From a virus (Duplodnaviria; Heunggongvirae; Uroviricota; Caudoviricetes), in IMG/VR virus record IMGVR_UViG_2778261354_000018, positions 1 to 8,561 of that record: 8,561 nucleotides of DNA; one strand, 5' to 3'. Position numbers and translations under genes: made by a program. How positions within the stretch are numbered: position 1 is the stretch's first letter; each line of letters starts with the position of its first letter. Under the pieces are notes generated by a model. It was not told where the DNA came from. It saw only the letters and a program-made list of their open reading frames with translations, and did not search any database. Of the stretch, positions 308 to 6,741 are shown one piece after another.

Positions 308-880
308 CTATTTATACAATACAACACCGCTCTTTTTAGTTATATATGTGCAGTTAGACGGTATATCTTTATTTATGAAGGACATTGCACCAATTTTAAC
401 ATTATCGCCTATGGTGAAACCGGAACCAAGTATAAAACAATGCGCCCCAATGTCCACATTGTTACCAATAATCACGTGGTCATGTTCATTGCATGATTGA
501 CTGCGGCCAATCGTGGTGTTTTGCCTGATTGTTAGATTATCACCGATAATCGCTGTGCTGGTGACAACAATGCCTGTATGATGAAGAATTGTAAGCCCCT
601 TGCCAATTGTTAGCCCAAGGCCAAGATCGCATCCATATTCGTTAAGCAATCTACGATTGATTTTTTTTGCCGCTTTTTTAGTTAATTTACCTCCATGGAT
701 GAACATCTCGTTAGCCAGTCTCCACCAAAAAAGATAATTTCGCGATCGTGATCTTTTCTCTCTTAAAAGCCTCCATATGGTCATATTGTCACGACGTATT
801 ACTTCTGCTTTCCAGAATTTTTTTAAATCAGTAGAGTTTCCAAACAAAACAAAGTGAATAGCCATTAAGTAAGATAACAC
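308..880 (-). CDS. Hexapeptide-repeat (left-handed beta-helix) acetyltransferase, CysE/WcaB/NodL-like; AT-rich moron
   Basis: Tandem [LIV]-G-x-x-x-x hexapeptide repeats (IGDNLT IRQNTT IGRSQS ... IGNNVD IGAHCF ILGSGF TIGDNV KIGAMSF) and an overall WcaB/serine-acetyltransferase-like layout. Stop TAG at 310-308. Start is uncertain: GTG at 880-878 lies 6 nt downstream of an AAGGAG Shine-Dalgarno and is preferred; alternatives are ATG at 865-863 or the ORF-track ATG at 913, which has no SD and sits only about 12 nt from the predicted transcription start. Region is strongly AT-rich compared with the flanking tail genes. Confidence 0.8.
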   Translation of the reverse strand: MLSYLMAIHFVLFGNSTDLKKFWKAEVIRRDNMTIWRLLREKRSRSRNYLFWWRLANEMFIHGGKLTKKAAKKINRRLLNEYGCDLGLGLTIGKGLTILHHTGIVVTSTAIIGDNLTIRQNTTIGRSQSCNEHDHVIIGNNVDIGAHCFILGSGFTIGDNVKIGAMSFINKDIPSNCTYITKKSGVVLYK

Positions 881-931
881 GATAATCTCCTTAATTATTA
901 TTTCAGACCACAAACGTTATAAGGTTAAGAG

Positions 932-960
932 ATTATAAAATCCCGTTATTTGTTATTCAA
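932..960 (-). promoter_or_regulatory. Candidate sigma70 promoter for the acetyltransferase moron
   Basis: Read on the minus strand: -35 TTGAAT (960-955), 17-nt spacer, -10 TATAAT (937-932). Predicted transcription start near 925, upstream of the AAGGAG SD and the GTG at 880. Confidence 0.55.
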
Positions 961-998: not shown

Positions 999-1020
999 GA
1001 CGCCCTGACATCAGGGCGTC
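999..1020 (-). terminator. GC-rich hairpin immediately downstream of U; possible terminator of the tail operon
   Basis: Inverted repeat GACGCCCTGA / TCAGGGCGTC (999-1008 / 1011-1020), 5 nt after the U stop codon (1028-1026). The downstream U-tract on the minus strand is weak (ATGGTGAAGTGTTGTTTG), so terminator function is uncertain. Confidence 0.4.
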
Positions 1021-1025
1021 TTCAT

Positions 1026-1490
1026 TCACACAAGTACCGAAAGGTTATTAAGCGCCCCTTTAACGTTATTCGCCAGATCGCCAAGTGACGAGGACTGGAG
1101 GCGCTCACGCAAATCTTCATTCACACGCTGAAAGGTCACCGTAAACTCTATCTTCCTGGCCCTGCCATAGCGATCGAGTTCTGAGCGCGTGGTCTGTAAC
1201 GAGGTTATGACGTACATCCCGTAAATCTGCCCGACACCATCAATCAGTGGCCATGGACGCCCCGCATACGCCTGAGTTGTCAGTGCCGTAAGCGAGACTT
1301 CACCGCCTGTTATTTCCGGGTAGAGAAGACCGGAAAGCGTGATGGTATCGTCACCCGCACCGATATACTGCCAGCTTGCCGAGCGGTTGATTCGCTCGTT
1401 CTTTACATGCCGCCAGTTACGGGACTGCTGTATTTGTTGGTGTGGCAGTTTGCTTAGCTGAAAAACAAACATGCCGTAAATCATCATCAT
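1026..1490 (-). CDS. U: Phage tail protein U (P2 gpU family)
   Basis: Translation (MMMIYGMFVFQLSKLPHQQIQQSRNWRH...GAGDDTITLSGLLYPEITGG...) resembles P2 gpU as I recall it. Several clustered starts exist (GTG 1499, ATG 1496, 1490, 1487, 1484). ATG at 1490 is 8 nt after an AGGAG that overlaps the T stop codon (TAGGAG), so it is preferred. Stop TGA at 1028-1026. Confidence 0.85.
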   Translation of the reverse strand: MMMIYGMFVFQLSKLPHQQIQQSRNWRHVKNERINRSASWQYIGAGDDTITLSGLLYPEITGGEVSLTALTTQAYAGRPWPLIDGVGQIYGMYVITSLQTTRSELDRYGRARKIEFTVTFQRVNEDLRERLQSSSLGDLANNVKGALNNLSVLV

Positions 1491-1501
1491 AGCCATCACT
1501 C

Positions 1502-4354
1502 CTAATCACGATCGCGGAAGCTGTTTATGCCACCGGACTGTCTGCGAATTTCTTCACGTACCGCCTCCCCCACCATTCTGGCAAGGTCGCGCGGATTCTG
1601 TGTAACCACGTTATGAAGGTGAACGTGAATTTCCCCATCAAACACAGGCGACGGCGCAGGCGCAGATGCACGCGATGCCGAACCCGATGATGGCGAAACC
1701 GGTGCCCACTGCTTAACCTCCACAGGACGGGAAGTATCCGGGGAAACAACCGGAGACACGGGTGAAAGCGCTGGCACAGGCGGAAGCCCGGGGGCAACAG
1801 TCGGTTCATTCCACTGCCCACGAACGGCCAGCGCGCGGGGGAGATTTTTAAACACGATATCGCCGGGGCCGATACGCTTACGGGCTTCCTGAAGCATACC
1901 CGACGTATTGCCTTCGATACCCTTGAGCCTGCGAAGAACGCCACTGGTACCGTCGTTTATGACAGAAGGCTTGCCGCCATTTTCATCATTACCCCCTTTG
2001 CCTCCCTTATCTCCATTGCCATCAACTGGTTTGGTGATAATGGCATTAACATCACCCTGAAGCAGGGAGAGCTTGCCCTGAAGAAGCGAAGCCCGCTGTG
2101 CATCCTCAAGTTTCCGTCGCGCCCTTTCCGCTTCATCTGGCAACACGCCCAGTTTTTCCAGTACCCAGGCAAGCCCGTCCATCAGCGCCTTCATAGGTGT
2201 AAGTGCGAGCGATATCGCCCCGCTGAGCACGCGACCAAAAGTTTCCCCGGCCGATGTACACCGTTCAAGAGATTCATTACTGGCCTGAACCGGCGTGAGC
2301 AACCGGGTAAACCAGTCGAACACCGTGGACACCGCACCCGATACCAGATCAAACAGCGGCGCAAACTGCGCGATACTTTCACGAACAGGCGCAAGGCCAG
2401 CCCACAGCGCCCGGAATGTGCCGAGCATGAAGGCCTTAACCTGTTCCCAGTGACGCCATATGAGCAGCGCCCCACCGGCAAGGGCAGCAATCACGAGACC
2501 AACAGGACTGAGAAGACCGGCAAGCGCCCCGCCCAGCACCGAAAACGCACCGGATACCATCCCCCACAGTGCCGGAAGTCCGGACAGGCGAAGGACAAGA
2601 CCACTGACGCCGGTTGCAACGGAGGAAAGCCCGCCACCAAGAAGCGCAGAGCCAAGCTGAAGTTTTGCAAAAACCCCCGTCAGCAATCCACCACCGACAG
2701 ACAGCGCGCCTATGGCCGTTGTGGCCGCAAGCACGCCCCCCACGGTAAGGGTCAGTGTGCGTACAAGCTGCGGGTTTTCCTGAATCCACGACCTGAAACG
2801 TTCGCCCACAGAAGCAACAGCCTGTACAAGCTCGCGGATATCATCAGTAACCAGCGACACAACATCACTGCGTATACCGGAGAAGACGCCAGACAGACGA
2901 TCGGCATCACCGCCGAGGTTATCCCGCAGGACATCCCCCATTCGCCGGGCGGTTCCCTGAACCTGTCCCATACGGTCTGATACCGTTGCCAGCGAGCGGA
3001 GAAAATCCGGGATCTGGTCAACGGCAAGATCTTCAATGGGTGTGCCGAACAGCGCTATCGCCGCATTAGCCCGTTCTGCCGGATCCTGAATCTTCAGCAG
3101 CCCGGCAGCCGTTCGCTGCATTGCCTCGCGTGCAGCTGCGCCTCCGCTGGCAATCGCTGACGACATTCTTTCAGCGTTAAGACCAATCATCTCATAGGCT
3201 TCAACGCTTGCTTTGGACATATCCGAACCGCGAATACTGAATTCCTTGACGGCATCGCCGGTTTTATCCAGGGCGAATTTTCCCTGCTGTGCCATGCTGA
3301 CAAGCAGCGTCATGGTTTCAGAGCCGGAAAGCCCCATATTGCGGAAGTGCGTGGAATACTCATGCAGAATTTCAGGAAGTTCAGCGCGCATTTCGGCAGA
3401 CATTTTCTGCATCCCTGCCGCCATCAGGTCGACCGCCTCCCCGGCATTTGCGGCAAGCCCGTTTTTCAGCATGATTCCGGCAGCCTGAACCTGTTCAGCC
3501 ACACTACCGCCGGTGACCTGAGCAAGATCCAGCGCCTGCCGTGTCACCCGTTCGAGCTCTTCAGTCCCCACCGTACCCAGTGAGCCAAGCGTGCTTTGCG
3601 TCGCAGCTGCCGCCTCTGAAATCATCGCAATATCCGTTGCAACACCCGACGCCCGGATATTCTGAATCATCCGGCTGTAGCGCTGCCCGTCATCCGCACT
3701 GCCGCCACTCTGTGCCGCAATAAGCGCGCCCTGCCGTTGCTCTTCAACAACAGGCGCAACCGCATGTCCGGCGGCGTACAGACCAGCACTGCCCGCCGCC
3801 ATGGCAAACGCTCCGCGCTGGCTTAGTTTACCGGCGATATCATGAACACGATCGTAACGTTGCTGTGCCTGCGTGACGCGCGAAAGCTGAGCCTGCTGGC
3901 GTTCAAGCTGATCGTTGTATTCCTGCGTTCGCCTGATTGCTTCCTCCACAGCGCGGTTACTTCCGTCAGCCCGTATGCCGTGGGCTTCCAGTTCGCGACC
4001 GGCCTCCCGTAATCGGGACTGGTGAAGGGAGTACACAGTATTAAGGCGCTCAACCTTTGCGGTCAGCGCCCGGAGAGTTTCCTGCTGCTTTTCCGTCAGT
4101 GCTGTGCCGGTGCGCTGTGCTTCCTGAAGGCGCTGAAGTCGCGCACGCGCATCATTCAGACTGTTTTCAGTCGAAGCGACCTGCTGACGGGCACGGGAAA
4201 ACGCATCACTGCTTCGCTGGAGTGACTTAAGCGCGTTCTGTGTGGACGAAAGGGATTCAGAAAGCGCGCCGGTCATTTCCCGGGCGCGCCTGACAGGTTG
4301 AGTGAGACGGTCGACCGCAGTGAGGGCTACACGTATCTGGAGATTATTACTCAT
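1502..4354 (-). CDS. T: Tail tape measure protein (P2 gpT family), about 950 aa
   Basis: Long ORF with coiled-coil-like N-terminal region, central Gly/Ala-rich hydrophobic segments and a Pro/Ser-rich C-terminal region, sitting between E/E' and U as in P2. Start placed at ATG 4354-4352 (MSNNLQIRV...), which overlaps the end of the E' frame (gATGAGTAA). The ORF-track start at 4408 is an upstream in-frame extension. Stop TAG at 1504-1502. Confidence 0.9.
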   Translation of the reverse strand: MSNNLQIRVALTAVDRLTQPVRRAREMTGALSESLSSTQNALKSLQRSSDAFSRARQQVASTENSLNDARARLQRLQEAQRTGTALTEKQQETLRALTAKVERLNTVYSLHQSRLREAGRELEAHGIRADGSNRAVEEAIRRTQEYNDQLERQQAQLSRVTQAQQRYDRVHDIAGKLSQRGAFAMAAGSAGLYAAGHAVAPVVEEQRQGALIAAQSGGSADDGQRYSRMIQNIRASGVATDIAMISEAAAATQSTLGSLGTVGTEELERVTRQALDLAQVTGGSVAEQVQAAGIMLKNGLAANAGEAVDLMAAGMQKMSAEMRAELPEILHEYSTHFRNMGLSGSETMTLLVSMAQQGKFALDKTGDAVKEFSIRGSDMSKASVEAYEMIGLNAERMSSAIASGGAAAREAMQRTAAGLLKIQDPAERANAAIALFGTPIEDLAVDQIPDFLRSLATVSDRMGQVQGTARRMGDVLRDNLGGDADRLSGVFSGIRSDVVSLVTDDIRELVQAVASVGERFRSWIQENPQLVRTLTLTVGGVLAATTAIGALSVGGGLLTGVFAKLQLGSALLGGGLSSVATGVSGLVLRLSGLPALWGMVSGAFSVLGGALAGLLSPVGLVIAALAGGALLIWRHWEQVKAFMLGTFRALWAGLAPVRESIAQFAPLFDLVSGAVSTVFDWFTRLLTPVQASNESLERCTSAGETFGRVLSGAISLALTPMKALMDGLAWVLEKLGVLPDEAERARRKLEDAQRASLLQGKLSLLQGDVNAIITKPVDGNGDKGGKGGNDENGGKPSVINDGTSGVLRRLKGIEGNTSGMLQEARKRIGPGDIVFKNLPRALAVRGQWNEPTVAPGLPPVPALSPVSPVVSPDTSRPVEVKQWAPVSPSSGSASRASAPAPSPVFDGEIHVHLHNVVTQNPRDLARMVGEAVREEIRRQSGGINSFRDRD

Positions 4355-4894
4355 CGTTATGATTCCCGGCTCTGGCAGCCGCCCGCTCTCGCCAGGCAAC
4401 AACCTCACCAGGACTCATACCGAATATCTCTGCGGGCGACCAGTTAAAAACAACAGCGATATCAGCAACAAGCTCTTCGATATCGTCAAACAGGAGGCGA
4501 ATTACATCACACCCGTATTCATCTTTTTCTTGCCGGGCAAGGCCTTCGGCGCGAAAAAATGCGTGGCCGCCGTGGAAAGCGCCCCGAAATCCTCCGTGCG
4601 CATGGTCGACAACTCCGCTTCAGTGAGACGGGGCTCTGTAACACGAGCGAGATAAACGCACATCGCGTTAAAGTTCAGGTTGTACAGGTGAGCCAGAGAC
4701 AGACCACGCAGCGAACCACTCTGACGGGCACGCTCGCCAATCTTCACATGTGTAATAATCTGTTCGCCACGGATGACCGGGTTTGTTAATTCAATGAGCT
4801 CACCGTTATAGGCAACCTCATTACCATCAGCAGCATCGAAGTCGTCGACGTTATCAGCACCGACAACCGGCATTTCGTTTTGTTTTTTTGACAT
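4347..4894 (-). CDS. E': E+E' fusion made by programmed -1 ribosomal frameshift (tail assembly chaperone, long form)
   Basis: After the slippery site, the -1 frame stays open for about 68 codons (RAEGLARQEKDEYGCDVIRLLFDDIEELVADIAVVFNWSPAEIFGMSPGEVVAWRERAAARAGNHNDE) and ends at TAA 4349-4347, overlapping the T start codon. Frame arithmetic is consistent with a -1 shift. This mirrors the E/E' arrangement known in P2 and the G/GT arrangement in lambda. Confidence 0.65.
4502..4894 (-). CDS. E: Tail assembly chaperone E (zero-frame product)
   Basis: Position between FII and T matches P2 gene E. AGGAG Shine-Dalgarno 9 nt upstream of ATG 4894-4892. Contains the slippery heptamer T_TTT_TTC near its 3' end. 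Stop TAA at 4504-4502. Confidence 0.75.
   Translation of the reverse strand: MSKKQNEMPVVGADNVDDFDAADGNEVAYNGELIELTNPVIRGEQIITHVKIGERARQSGSLRGLSLAHLYNLNFNAMCVYLARVTEPRLTEAELSTMRTEDFGALSTAATHFFAPKALPGKKKMNTGVM
4553..4559 (-). other. Slippery heptamer T_TTT_TTC (X_XXY_YYZ) for the E/E' -1 frameshift
   Basis: Minus-strand codons CAT TTT TTC (4561-4553) in the E zero frame. Plus strand reads gaaaaaa at 4553-4559. Confidence 0.6.
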
Positions 4895-4939
4895 CGTGAA
4901 ATTCTCCTGGCGGCCACACGACCGCCGTCAGTCAGTTAA

Positions 4940-5452
4940 TCAGCCAAGCCCCAGCATGGAGCGGGTGCGGTCAGGCAACACATCCTTGCCATCAACGCGC
5001 CAGATGAAGTTCAGCACGTCGATTTCAATAACATCGCTGTTATCAACGCTGAGCTTGTACCAGGTGCATTTCATCGCGTAGGTATGTTCGGTATCCTCAC
5101 CCTGTTTGGCTTCGCCCTTGTCGATTTCGACAATGCGCCCACGGGCTTCAATATCGACGTACTCAATACCCTCTTCGGAATAGTATTCACCCGAGAAGCG
5201 CACACGTACCGCATCAATTCCGGCAGCATATTTGGCAAAGATGTGACGGTCCACGCCGCCAACCGCAAAGGAGAGATCCAGCGCACCGTCATCAAGACCG
5301 AGATCCACCGCCGCAGAGCCTGGCATACCCGCACCGCGATACGCTTCAGTCTTGCGGGTCAGCTTGGGCGGAGTGAAGGAGGTCACCTTACCCAGCTTGT
5401 TGTCACCGTCCACAAAGACGGTAAACACACGAAGTTTTTTTGGCACAGCCAT
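4940..5452 (-). CDS. FII: Tail tube protein (P2 gpFII family)
   Basis: Translation (MAVPKKLRVFTVFVDGDNKLGKVTSFTPPKLTRKTEAYRGAGMPGSAAVDLGLDDGAL...KQGEDTEH...) resembles P2 FII. GGAGG SD about 7 nt upstream. Its ATG (5452-5450) overlaps the FI stop TGA (5454-5452) as TGATG-type coupling. Confidence 0.9.
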   Translation of the reverse strand: MAVPKKLRVFTVFVDGDNKLGKVTSFTPPKLTRKTEAYRGAGMPGSAAVDLGLDDGALDLSFAVGGVDRHIFAKYAAGIDAVRVRFSGEYYSEEGIEYVDIEARGRIVEIDKGEAKQGEDTEHTYAMKCTWYKLSVDNSDVIEIDVLNFIWRVDGKDVLPDRTRSMLGLG

Positions 5453-6648
5453 CAGTTACCTCCTCCCAGAGATGCAAAAGCAGAACTGAAGAACTCGTCA
5501 GTAAACGTCTGATAAAGTTCCATGCACTCCATAGGCGGAACGGGGGTGTATTTGTAGCGAATACGCACAATACCCTGACGAAGGCTGGTTGTGTCGTTGT
5601 CGATGATATCGAACCAGCATTCCGCCCCGATAAGTTTTCCGGCCGTGACCAGCGCATCCAGTTTTGCCTTGATAGCGCTGATCGCATCCTTCGCGTTGGC
5701 TGGCGTCAACGGTGAATCAACCACCTGAAGCTGCGCCTCTGCGATAGTATCAGCCAGTTGTTGCGAGGTACGGGTGTACACCTCAAAGGTATATTCCGAC
5801 GTATCCGGCGTACGGTTACCCCAGAAACGGAAGGAGCCGTCACCCTGGTGAATAAGCGTGGTCACTTCGCTGTTATTCAGCGTATTGGCATCGCTGTTTT
5901 CATCCTGAAGCGACCAGGAGACAGGCACTGATAACCCAAGAACATTTTTCACAGGCATGTTGGAAAGCGAACGATGCCAGCCCTGTTCGTGGTCCAGTCG
6001 GGCACGAAGGCCGCACGCATACGCCGCAGCAGGGAACGTTTCGTTTTTACCTGACACCGGGTTGAAGGCGATAAAATCAGGCCACAGAAGCATGATTTCA
6101 CGCCCGGAAACCTTTTTGCGGAATGCAATGGCATCAGACGGTTTTGTGCAGCCGGGGCAGCCGGAGTACGCAAAAGCACGCATCTTTCCCGCCACCGTCA
6201 CTAGTGCCGCCGTAACGGCGTCAGATTCAAGGCCGGGCGCGGCAAGAATGCGCGGGCGGTAACCAATACCTTCCATCTGTTCAGCAACAAGAAAGGCCTG
6301 CATCCCTGAATAGCTGCCGTCTTCTTCCGTGGTACCAATGACAAGCTGATCCTGCGTTTTGTTTTCCGGGCCTTCCTGAGCTGCCGCCACGCGAACGACA
6401 ATTACCCGGGTGCTTACCTGGTCAGAAATAGCCTTAAGAGACTTGTAAAGGGTACCTGTTTCCCCGGCCTTGCCCAGAACCGAAGATACGCGGGTAAGCA
6501 GTACCGGCTTGTTAAGAGGGAACTGTTCGGCATCCGCATCATCTGCAACGGCAACAATACCAATGACGCTGGAATCAACGTCATTAATTGCCGTCACCAG
6601 GTCGGTATTTTCCCTGACGCGCACACCGTGAAATCGTGTTTCAGCCAT
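5452..6648 (-). CDS. FI: Tail sheath protein (P2 gpFI family)
   Basis: Translation (MAETRFHGVRV...DADAEQFPLNKPVLLTRV...GLRARLDHEQGWHRSLSNMPV...FRFWGNRT...YKYTPVPPME) resembles P2 FI sheath protein throughout. Start placed at ATG 6648-6646, preceded by GGTGA at 5-nt spacing. In-frame alternatives are ATG 6660 and GTG 6663. Confidence 0.9.
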   Translation of the reverse strand: MAETRFHGVRVRENTDLVTAINDVDSSVIGIVAVADDADAEQFPLNKPVLLTRVSSVLGKAGETGTLYKSLKAISDQVSTRVIVVRVAAAQEGPENKTQDQLVIGTTEEDGSYSGMQAFLVAEQMEGIGYRPRILAAPGLESDAVTAALVTVAGKMRAFAYSGCPGCTKPSDAIAFRKKVSGREIMLLWPDFIAFNPVSGKNETFPAAAYACGLRARLDHEQGWHRSLSNMPVKNVLGLSVPVSWSLQDENSDANTLNNSEVTTLIHQGDGSFRFWGNRTPDTSEYTFEVYTRTSQQLADTIAEAQLQVVDSPLTPANAKDAISAIKAKLDALVTAGKLIGAECWFDIIDNDTTSLRQGIVRIRYKYTPVPPMECMELYQTFTDEFFSSAFASLGGGN

Positions 6649-6723: not shown

Positions 6724-6741
6724 TGTGTGGATTTTTTTACA
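6724..6741. promoter_or_regulatory. TGT-N12-ACA dyad resembling the Ogr/Delta activator site of P2-type late promoters, in the divergent FI/D intergenic region
   Basis: TGTgtggatttttttACA at 6724-6741. Its centre (about 6732) is roughly 55 bp from plausible transcription starts in both directions: about 6788 for D, with a -10-like GATGAT at 6776-6781, and about 6677 for FI. A single match of this short motif could occur by chance, so this is a candidate only. Confidence 0.4.

Follow-up and report, generated by a model that had tools for sequence, protein, structure and literature searches.

In phage P2 the tail genes are ordered FI-FII-E/E+E'-T-U (GenBank AF063097; Christie et al. 2002, cited through PMC3091744), with a 12-nt spacer between FI and FII, a -1 frameshift at TTTTTTG, an 8-nt overlap of the E' stop with the T start (ATGAGTAA), a 14-nt T/U spacer in which the T stop is fused to the GGAG of U (TAAGGAGG), and a 1-nt overlap of U with D. 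Both the E'/T overlap and the -1 frameshift are annotated in the P2 GenBank record. Long-tailed phages share a conserved chaperone frameshift, whose efficiency in P2 is 2-3 times that in lambda (PMC5009743). In the lambda G/GT-H-M-L genes the frameshift extension T likewise runs 8 nt into the tape-measure gene H, giving spacings of -8 (T/H), -4 (H/M, the tape-measure stop overlapping the next gene) and -1 (M/L). Such distances are familiar from E. coli operons, in which -1 and -8 nt overlaps and +9 to +12 nt spacers rank with the most frequent; 24% of same-strand E. coli pairs are spaced at -8 to +6 nt and a further 7% at +9 to +12 nt (PMC10666635). The E. coli TeRe pairs (Huber et al. 2019, 2023) are co-directional, with TGATG (-1) and -8 overlaps; their ribosome-binding site falls within the upstream gene, and they are enriched for complex subunits. 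The coupling effect in E. coli falls steeply with distance (PMC6728339, PMC10666635).

The window (the whole stretch of 8,561 nt analysed, from IMG/VR virus record IMGVR_UViG_2778261354_000018) carries on its minus strand, from 6648 to 1026, a late tail operon that its sequence identifies as FI-FII-E/E+E'-T-U of a P2-like (Peduoviridae-type) prophage. The genes for sheath, tube, chaperone, tape measure and gpU follow one another on one strand in P2-like order, and were identified by Pfam matches and homology to P2.

5452-6648, minus strand: FI, tail sheath gene, 398 aa (Pfam Phage_sheath_1, 2.9e-22, with sheath N- and C-terminal domains)
4940-5452, minus strand: FII, tail tube gene, 170 aa (Pfam Phage_tube, 3.1e-49, full length)
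4502-4894, minus strand: E, tail assembly chaperone, 130 aa (E+E' against P2 gpE+E', blastp 1e-32)
4553-4559, minus strand: slippery heptamer T TTT TTC in the E frame, predicted -1 frameshift site (aligned with the P2 TTTTTTG annotated at 19685)
4347-4553, minus strand: E', -1 frame extension giving E+E' of 182 aa, stop TAA at 4349-4347 (Pfam Phage_P2_GpE)
1502-4354, minus strand: T, tape measure gene, 950 aa, stop TAG at 1504-1502 (Pfam PhageMin_Tail, 1.1e-18)
1026-1490, minus strand: U, baseplate/tube-initiator-region protein, 154 aa (Pfam Phage_P2_GpU, 4.4e-41)
999-1020, minus strand: 9-bp hairpin GACGCCCTG-ATGT-CAGGGCGTC just 3' of the U stop (direct reading)

In the lineage of this operon, D and ogr diverge from FI. 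Both genes (D at 6802-7947, ogr at 7989-8291) lie upstream of FI and are read from the plus strand, and the FETUD arrangement of P2, with D directly 3' of U and overlapping it, is absent from the window. Since the divergent layout was found in 45 of 94 related loci, it is a sub-lineage marker and not an artefact. The ogr product matched Pfam Ogr_Delta (6.3e-16). An Ogr/Delta-type dyad of consensus TGT-N12-ACA would be expected upstream of the F promoter. A candidate dyad at 6724-6741, 85 nt from the FI ATG (83 nt in P2), has half-sites mostly retained in three relatives, the motif being no commoner in the window than by chance (2 against 2.08 expected). At the other end, the 999-1020 hairpin probably marks the end of the operon; relatives L001 and L002 have clear terminators with a hairpin and T run at this place, and the window's copy is without the T run.

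The nearest DNA was an IMG/VR contig (95%), followed by E. coli prophages (~89%), and the best gpU identity among species representatives was 83%. When the whole window was compared with phage genomes by megablast, no close relative of the tail module turned up, and only short pieces matched, in T/U, in the gene for tail-fibre assembly and in the hok region; the DNA identity to P2 was too low for megablast. The lambda tail genes showed no detectable sequence similarity to the window, and lambda differs also in its non-contractile tail and in its slippery site and junction sequences. In Rfam, nothing in the whole window was above a gathering threshold. The window's gene layout with divergent D-ogr was found in the serS-adjacent prophage of E. 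coli MSB1_4I and in the Escherichia phages Chuche and PhiR44_2, all of which have the FI/FII TGATG with GGGAGG upstream and begin U at the same site, ATGATGATG, which follows the T stop by 11-12 nt. Chuche and PhiR44_2 are ~74-76% identical in DNA, over short stretches only, and have a 14-nt E'/T overlap in contrast to the 8 nt of the window.

The following elements lie at the gene junctions.

5450-5454, minus strand: TGATG, FI stop and FII start, 1-nt overlap (direct reading)
5459-5467, minus strand: GGGAGGAGG, FII ribosome-binding site within the C-terminal Gly codons of FI (anti-SD duplex)
4909-4926, minus strand: 7-bp GC-rich hairpin in the 45-nt FII-E spacer, adjoining the AGGAG of E at 4908-4904 (MFE -13.8 kcal/mol)
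4347-4354, minus strand: ATGAGTAA, T start and E' stop, 8-nt overlap (direct reading; same 8 nt in P2)
1499-1503, minus strand: AGGAG, U ribosome-binding site, with two bases common to the T stop (direct reading)

Three of these junctions had been described as tight in an earlier note on this DNA, namely the FI stop/FII start overlap TGATG at 5454-5450, the E' stop/T start overlap at 4354-4347 and the T stop TAG as part of an AGGAG at 1503-1499, and direct reading of the minus strand bore out all three. The comparison with P2 junctions that the same note proposed gave an identical E'/T and a similar T/U junction; at FI/FII the two differ. The junction motifs alone are short and unremarkable, and the junctions stand above chance because homologous loci conserve them in the same positions. 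The survey covered about 110 related loci, which are not phylogenetically independent, in 23 FII (tube-protein) lineages, with gene starts chosen automatically. Calculated anti-SD energies in the window were -13.4 (FII), -7.4 (E), -6.8 (U), -5.1 (FI) and -4.3 (T) kcal/mol. Termination-reinitiation pairs are co-directional genes with overlaps of 1, 4 or 8 nt or with gaps of a few nt at most. FI/FII (-1) and E'/T (-8) fit this class, whereas T/U (+11) does not; also unlike the E. coli pairs, the E' frame that meets T is reached only by frameshifting, and coupling here is read from geometry. The whole account, that is, a P2-like tail operon with three normal, conserved junctions and the translation behaviour proposed below, is given a probability of about 0.8; its anatomy is observed, and its translation behaviour is what we infer.

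FI ends in ...GGA GGA GGT AAC TGA, with the TGA at 5454-5452 and the FII ATG at 5452-5450. The GGGAGGAGG site (5467-5459) is 6 nt 5' of the FII ATG, its duplex energy was equalled by only 0.1% of random operon 20-mers, and the GGGAGG upstream of FII is kept throughout the lineage; by this calculation the site is predicted to be strong enough to initiate independently. The spacing itself is not conserved. It is -1 or 0 in the window's lineage and in 35 of the 108 related loci, and other lineages have spacers of 42-57 nt with a hairpin; with the 12 nt of P2, this variability means that equal sheath and tube output needs no overlap. Coupling of FI and FII is plausible from the junction geometry. 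A ribosome finishing FI would stop at a UGA that overlaps the FII AUG, with a very strong binding site 6 nt upstream in the last FI codons, so tube protein would come from re-initiation together with efficient fresh initiation, near the level of the sheath. The FII-E junction is the sole junction of the operon that is not tight, and Chuche and P2 have hairpins of other sequence at the same position.

The strength of the FII site and the range of FI/FII spacings (-1 to 57 nt across relatives) would also fit compaction only, in which packaging-size pressure draws the genes together, each gene starts translation by itself and the overlaps play no part in regulation; the fact that -1, -8 and +9 to +12 nt are common across E. 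coli operons (PMC10666635) fits this as well. However, the overlapping E. coli pairs tested were coupled in nearly all cases (PMC6728339), and the E'/T junction argues against compaction on two counts: T lacks an above-background ribosome-binding site in the lineages examined, which makes independent initiation a weak route, and E' and T stay close across lineages with just ~30-45% tube-protein identity, as well as in lambda. Compaction as the entire explanation is possible but somewhat unlikely. We regard translational coupling at the junctions as plausible, judged from their geometry.

E sits between the tube gene FII and the tape-measure gene T, and its Pfam Phage_TAC_7 match (21 bits) is under the cut-off of 25. 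It is longer than P2 gpE (130 against 91 aa), and its heptamer ends in C where that of P2 ends in G; in the first set of 56 loci TTTTTT[GCA] was found at the heptamer position in every locus. The -1 frame is open from the heptamer (4559-4553) through 4347, Phage_P2_GpE (PF06528) matches fusion residues 143-178, the -1 frame part, at 1.9e-13, and E' aligns with P2 E' as far as the C-terminal ...GN(H/T)N(D)E. On these alignments E' is read as a frameshift extension, and not as the separate gene that automated pipelines call in relatives.

At the E'/T junction the T ATG is at 4354-4352 and the E' TAA at 4349-4347. The two genes overlap in 92 of 102 loci (exactly 8 nt in 46), the E' stop is at most 17 nt from the T AUG in 101 of the 102, and four lineages have gaps of 3-17 nt. 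The T duplex energy, which is also the median across relatives (-4.3), was equalled by 29% of random operon 20-mers, and by duplex energy no T ribosome-binding site above background was found in any lineage examined. T translation may therefore depend on ribosomes completing E+E'. Ribosomes that do not shift frame finish at the E stop, which is 147 nt short of T, and only frameshifted ones reach the E' stop, so coupling at E'/T can involve only this minority. In the proposed sequence of events a minority of ribosomes would slip -1 at U UUU UUC, yielding the E+E' chaperone, and would terminate at the UAA, which lies five bases beyond the T AUG. Lacking a binding site, T would have low translation, most of it probably owed to these terminating ribosomes.

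A stricter form of this mechanism would have T made almost only by slipped E' ribosomes re-initiating at ATGAGTAA, with the frameshift rate hard-wiring the E+E':T ratio. In addition to the lack of a T binding site, it is favoured by the E stop being too far upstream for re-initiation (PMC10666635), by the closeness of the E' stop to the T AUG in nearly all loci (101/102) and by the same 8-nt overlap at lambda GT/H. Yet the A/U-rich region around the T start could allow initiation without a binding site, dual coding (T starts MSN, E' ends NE/DE) could alone keep the 8-mer, and the four lineages with E'/T gaps speak against strict gating. Among the papers searched, none was found that tests frameshift gating of the tape measure. 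It is doubtful that T synthesis in P2-like lineages is gated by re-initiation of frameshifted ribosomes. An RNA hairpin predicted over the T start was found in the window clade only (probability unpaired 0.20-0.31, compared with 0.50 in P2 and ~0.5 in the largest clade); it was rejected as a coupling device of the family because it is missing in P2 and the largest clade and its arms are coding.

At T/U, the final two bases of the T stop (TAG, 1504-1502) are the first two of the AGGAG, which lies 8 nt before the U ATG at 1490, so that T stop and U ATG are 11 nt apart. The U duplex is in the top 6% of random operon 20-mers. A stop fused to GGAG was also found in P2, Chuche, PhiR44_2 and many genome loci, and the T/U spacing was between -4 and +26 nt in all 95 loci measured. 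With the UAG embedded in AGGAG, a terminating ribosome would sit on the binding site of U; U could also initiate independently, which is the likely mode for the +11-nt spacer class according to Huber et al. (PMC10666635). The only solved homologue of U is the R2 pyocin 'ripcord' PA0626 (6u5b, 8.6e-05), of which the entry has 6 chains. Tape measures are generally few per tail. A T:U ratio of 1:1 is unlikely. The earlier note had taken the junctions to suggest coupled translation and fixed stoichiometry; this reading found partial support, in that coupling is plausible by junction geometry, whereas the junctions do not show fixed stoichiometry.

This geometry depends on the starts. If T began at GTG 4408, or U at GTG 1499, ATG 1496 or ATG 1484, the junctions would be artefacts of gene calling, and it is true that the longest ORFs in the window begin at GTG 4408 and GTG 1499 and that several in-frame ATGs lie 3' of the AGGAG (the in-frame candidates for U are GTG 1499 and ATG 1496, 1490, 1487 and 1484). 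However, both N-termini match P2 exactly by alignment, MSNNLQIRV of T residue for residue with MSNNVKLQV of gpT and MMMIYGMFVF of U with MMLALGMFVF of gpU, and the starts in PGAP calls and phage records agree with ATG 4354 for T and ATG 1490 for U. GTG 4408, inside E' and with a weaker ribosome-binding site (-3.0), was ruled out by homology and spacing, as was GTG 1499 for U. ATG 1496 and ATG 1484 were rejected on the same grounds: ATG 1496 is only 2 nt from the AGGAG, and L001 and L007, which are close relatives, have GTG in its place; ATG 1484 comes too late by two codons, with 14 nt between it and the AGGAG. Misplaced starts are thus a very improbable source of the observed geometry. U is placed at ATG 1490 because this start aligns with P2 gpU and PGAP picks the same one in E. 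coli MSB1_4I, a placement by homology that cannot separate it from ATG 1487. The FI start agrees with P2 gpFI by alignment and with the PGAP call in relative L001, and the FII N-terminus MAVPKKLR fits the MA[VLM]P[KR]KL of almost all relatives (MSLPRKLK or MLP in the most distant). Homology thus agrees with T at ATG 4354 and U at ATG 1490, the starts on which the earlier note's reading would have failed had they been placed elsewhere. Its claim that the junctions support the gene boundaries holds for FII, T and U, except that ATG 1484, if meant as the U start, is too late.

The three junctions are standard, conserved boundaries of a P2-like tail operon, which confirm the gene calls and add nothing new. 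Their practical value lies in annotation, for the starts of FII, T (ATG 4354, not GTG 4408) and U (ATG 1490), and biologically they show the architecture already known for P2-type and lambda-type tail operons. If gating of T were true, the frameshift would set how much tape measure is made per chaperone in addition to the E:E+E' ratio; a possible tie between the chaperone frameshift and synthesis of the tape measure is a matter general to long-tailed phages and not specific to the window.

Gene content was taken from an ORF listing, direct reading and Pfam, and the window is a P2-like prophage tail module with the following features.

1-264, plus: tail-fibre assembly gene, end only
880-308, minus: hexapeptide acetyltransferase, low GC
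1490-1026, minus: U
4354-1502, minus: T, tape measure
4894-4502, minus: E
5452-4940, minus: FII, tube
6648-5452, minus: FI, sheath
6802-7947, plus: D
7989-8291, plus: Ogr/Delta zinc-finger gene
8421-8561, plus: hok/gef-like ORF

No close DNA-level match to the window was found among sequenced phages. The closest DNA sequences are an IMG/VR contig (95% identity) and E. coli prophages adjoining serS (~89%), and the nearest isolated phages are Chuche and PhiR44_2, with a gpU identity of 74% and the same gene layout. The operon order is FI-FII-E-T-U, compared with FETUD in P2; D and ogr (6802-8291, plus) are divergent from FI (6648-1026, minus), whereas in P2 they are placed after U. The divergent layout is common to 45 of 94 related loci, from genera including Serratia, Salmonella, Enterobacter, Kosakonia, Pantoea, Photorhabdus, Xenorhabdus, Providencia and Citrobacter. 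A TGT-N12-ACA palindromic dyad (by motif count alone, at chance level) is located at 6724-6741, within the 153 bp that separate the divergent FI and D. Its distance to the FI ATG is 85 nt, compared with 83 nt between the FI ATG of P2 and the P_F activator site annotated there. It is also 69 nt from the D ATG, so the two late promoters, pointing in opposite directions, might share it. The half-sites of the dyad are largely retained in three relatives, and the spacer has diverged. The region 308-960 (minus), which separates U from the tail-fibre assembly gene, carries a CysE/WcaB-like hexapeptide O-acetyltransferase of low GC (34-41%), for which every NCBIfam match was below its cut-off; with its own promoter-like site (960-932) and hairpin-plus-T terminator (300-271), it resembles a lysogenic-conversion 'moron'. 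In the region 8275-8561 (plus), a sub-threshold Rfam match to sok (46 bits, gathering score 59) lies just upstream of the hok/gef-like toxin ORF at 8421-8561, and a Hok/Gef protein is annotated at the same prophage end, beside serS, in an E. coli relative. A near-threshold Rfam match to IS009, an E. coli sRNA candidate, lies inside the tail-fibre assembly gene (24-227, plus; 108.9 bits, gathering score 117).

The three tail-operon junctions described in an earlier note, TGATG (5454-5450), TAG/AGGAG (1503-1499) and ATGAGTAA (4354-4347), were correct to the base on direct reading. FI ends in GGA GGA GGT AAC TGA, and the A of this TGA doubles as the A of the FII ATG, giving TGATG. The T stop TAG (1504-1502) shares bases with the AGGAG at 1503-1499, and ATGAGTAA holds the T start (4354-4352) together with a TAA (4349-4347) that ends the -1 frame, whose entry point is T TTT TTC (4559-4553) inside E. 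The T stop is tandem (TAG GAG TGA, 1504-1496, minus), with an in-frame TGA one codon past the TAG; the counterpart in L001, a related locus annotated by PGAP, reads TAG GAG TGG TGA. The overlaps had also been taken to support the gene boundaries, and homology-based starts left T and U in place, in agreement with those boundaries. The T N-terminus reads MSNNLQIRV (MSNNVKLQV in P2 gpT), and that of U, MMMIYGMFVF, aligns with MMLALGMFVF of P2 gpU, which sets the U start at ATG 1490, 8 nt past AGGAG; the equivalent start was chosen by PGAP in E. coli MSB1_4I and likewise in the Chuche and PhiR44_2 records. Two other U starts were rejected: the in-frame upstream ATG 1496, just 2 nt from AGGAG and a GTG in close relatives, and ATG 1484, at the low end of the coordinates given for the earlier finding, which would be 14 nt from AGGAG.

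Tight junctions of this kind have been described before in P2 and lambda, and more widely in bacterial operons. In comparison with P2, as annotated in its record, the E'/T junction is the same (E+E' end 19857, T start 19850), with an identical 8-nt overlap string, whereas FI (17652-18842) and FII (18855-19373) are separated by a 12-nt spacer in P2. P2 T ends at 22297 and U starts at 22312, the 14-nt spacer reading TAAGGAGG..., and P2 U and D overlap by 1 nt. Lambda follows a like logic, with overlaps of 8 nt (T/H), 4 nt (H/M) and 1 nt (M/L). All three window junctions fall within ordinary E. coli spacing classes: the commonest same-strand spacings are -4, -1 and -8, 24% of pairs lie at -8 to +6 nt, and a second peak at +9 to +12 nt holds 7% (PMC10666635).

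Related loci were surveyed using 53 viral contigs found via FII and 55 genome loci found via U, with genes placed by tblastn, spacings measured automatically and loci sorted into 23 lineages at an FII identity of at least 80%; the loci are mutually related, and starts were picked by rule. E' and T overlapped in 92/102 loci, most often by 8 nt (46 loci), then by 14 nt (19), 4 nt (17) and 11 nt (9), with a single 95-nt case in an endosymbiont copy undergoing decay; the remaining 10 loci had gaps of 3-17 nt, and overlap was the rule in 18/22 lineages. All 95 loci measured for T/U had spacings between -4 and +26 nt. FI/FII spacing in 108 loci was -1 or 0 in 35, 3 in 3, 10-16 in 50 and 26-57 in 20, and a hairpin is present in several of the long spacers. 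The spacer of the 11-nt class is TAA GGG GCT AAC TGA TGG, and in locus L030 a single TAA-to-TCA change converts it to the TGATG overlap, so this junction is labile.

The predicted E+E' fusion is 182 aa and aligns with P2 gpE+E' over both parts (38% identity, E = 1e-32), with Pfam Phage_P2_GpE at 1.9e-13 in the -1 frame part. The slippery site TTTTTT[GCA] was present in every locus of a first 56-locus set, the last base being G in 46 loci, C in 8 (the window among them) and A in 2. Three relatives have E' annotated as a separate small gene instead of an extension of E reached by -1 frameshifting: L001 (10058-10213, PGAP, 'GpE family phage tail protein'), L002 (6039-6194, 'tail protein') and L004 (5691-5846, 'hypothetical protein', note 'P2 GpE family protein'). 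E (4894-4502, minus) is 130 aa and its P2 counterpart 91 aa, the difference being due to an acidic extension of ~30 residues at the N-terminus; in the close relative L008, E is ~104 aa by a tblastn-based estimate, with TTTTTTG in place of TTTTTTC. In the FII-E spacer (4942-4904, minus), the cluster TGATTAACTGACTGA (4942-4928) supplies stops in all three frames, and downstream of it a 7-bp GC hairpin (4926-4909) abuts the AGGAG of E. Hairpins of unrelated sequence occupy the same place in Chuche and P2, and the region may act in mRNA stability or attenuation, setting the highly expressed sheath/tube genes apart from the low-copy E-T-U genes.

Ribosome-binding sites were scored by anti-SD duplex energy against random 20-mers from the operon. 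FII was strongest (-13.4 kcal/mol, equalled by 0.1% of 20-mers), followed by E (-7.4, 4%), U (-6.8, 6%), FI (-5.1, ~20%) and T (-4.3, 29%). The T value is at background level, so T is effectively without a ribosome-binding site, in other lineages as well; medians across lineages were -4.3 for T, -6.9 for U and -7.6 for FII. A hairpin over the T start was predicted in the window's clade only, with coding arms, and was not relied on as a general feature.

From this anatomy, the coupled translation proposed in the earlier note is plausible but supported only in part, and the proposed fixed stoichiometry was not demonstrated. Coupling was seen in 13/14 overlapping pairs tested (PMC6728339); E. coli re-initiation dropped by 80-100% at 38-nt spacing and was variable at 2 and 14 nt, and independent initiation is probable for the +9 to +12 nt class according to Huber et al. 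(PMC10666635). At FI/FII, termination at the overlapping UGA beside a very strong internal ribosome-binding site would give high tube output matched to sheath, with re-initiation and fresh initiation both contributing. At T/U, the stop falls within the U ribosome-binding site at a distance of 11 nt from the AUG, which would allow re-initiation as well as independent initiation. R2 pyocin PA0626 'ripcord', the only solved U homologue, has six chains in 6u5b; tape measures are few per tail, so T:U is unlikely to be 1:1. The E stop lies 147 nt upstream of the T start, and most ribosomes would terminate there, a minority slipping -1 into E' and terminating five bases beyond the T AUG; frameshift efficiency in P2 is 2-3x that of lambda (PMC5009743). 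No test of frameshift-gated tape-measure translation was found in the literature searched. With T lacking a ribosome-binding site, its initiation would most plausibly come from the frameshifted ribosomes, and initiation by this slipped minority would keep the T level low; that tape-measure translation is frameshift-gated is a tentative reading, to which we give roughly one chance in four.
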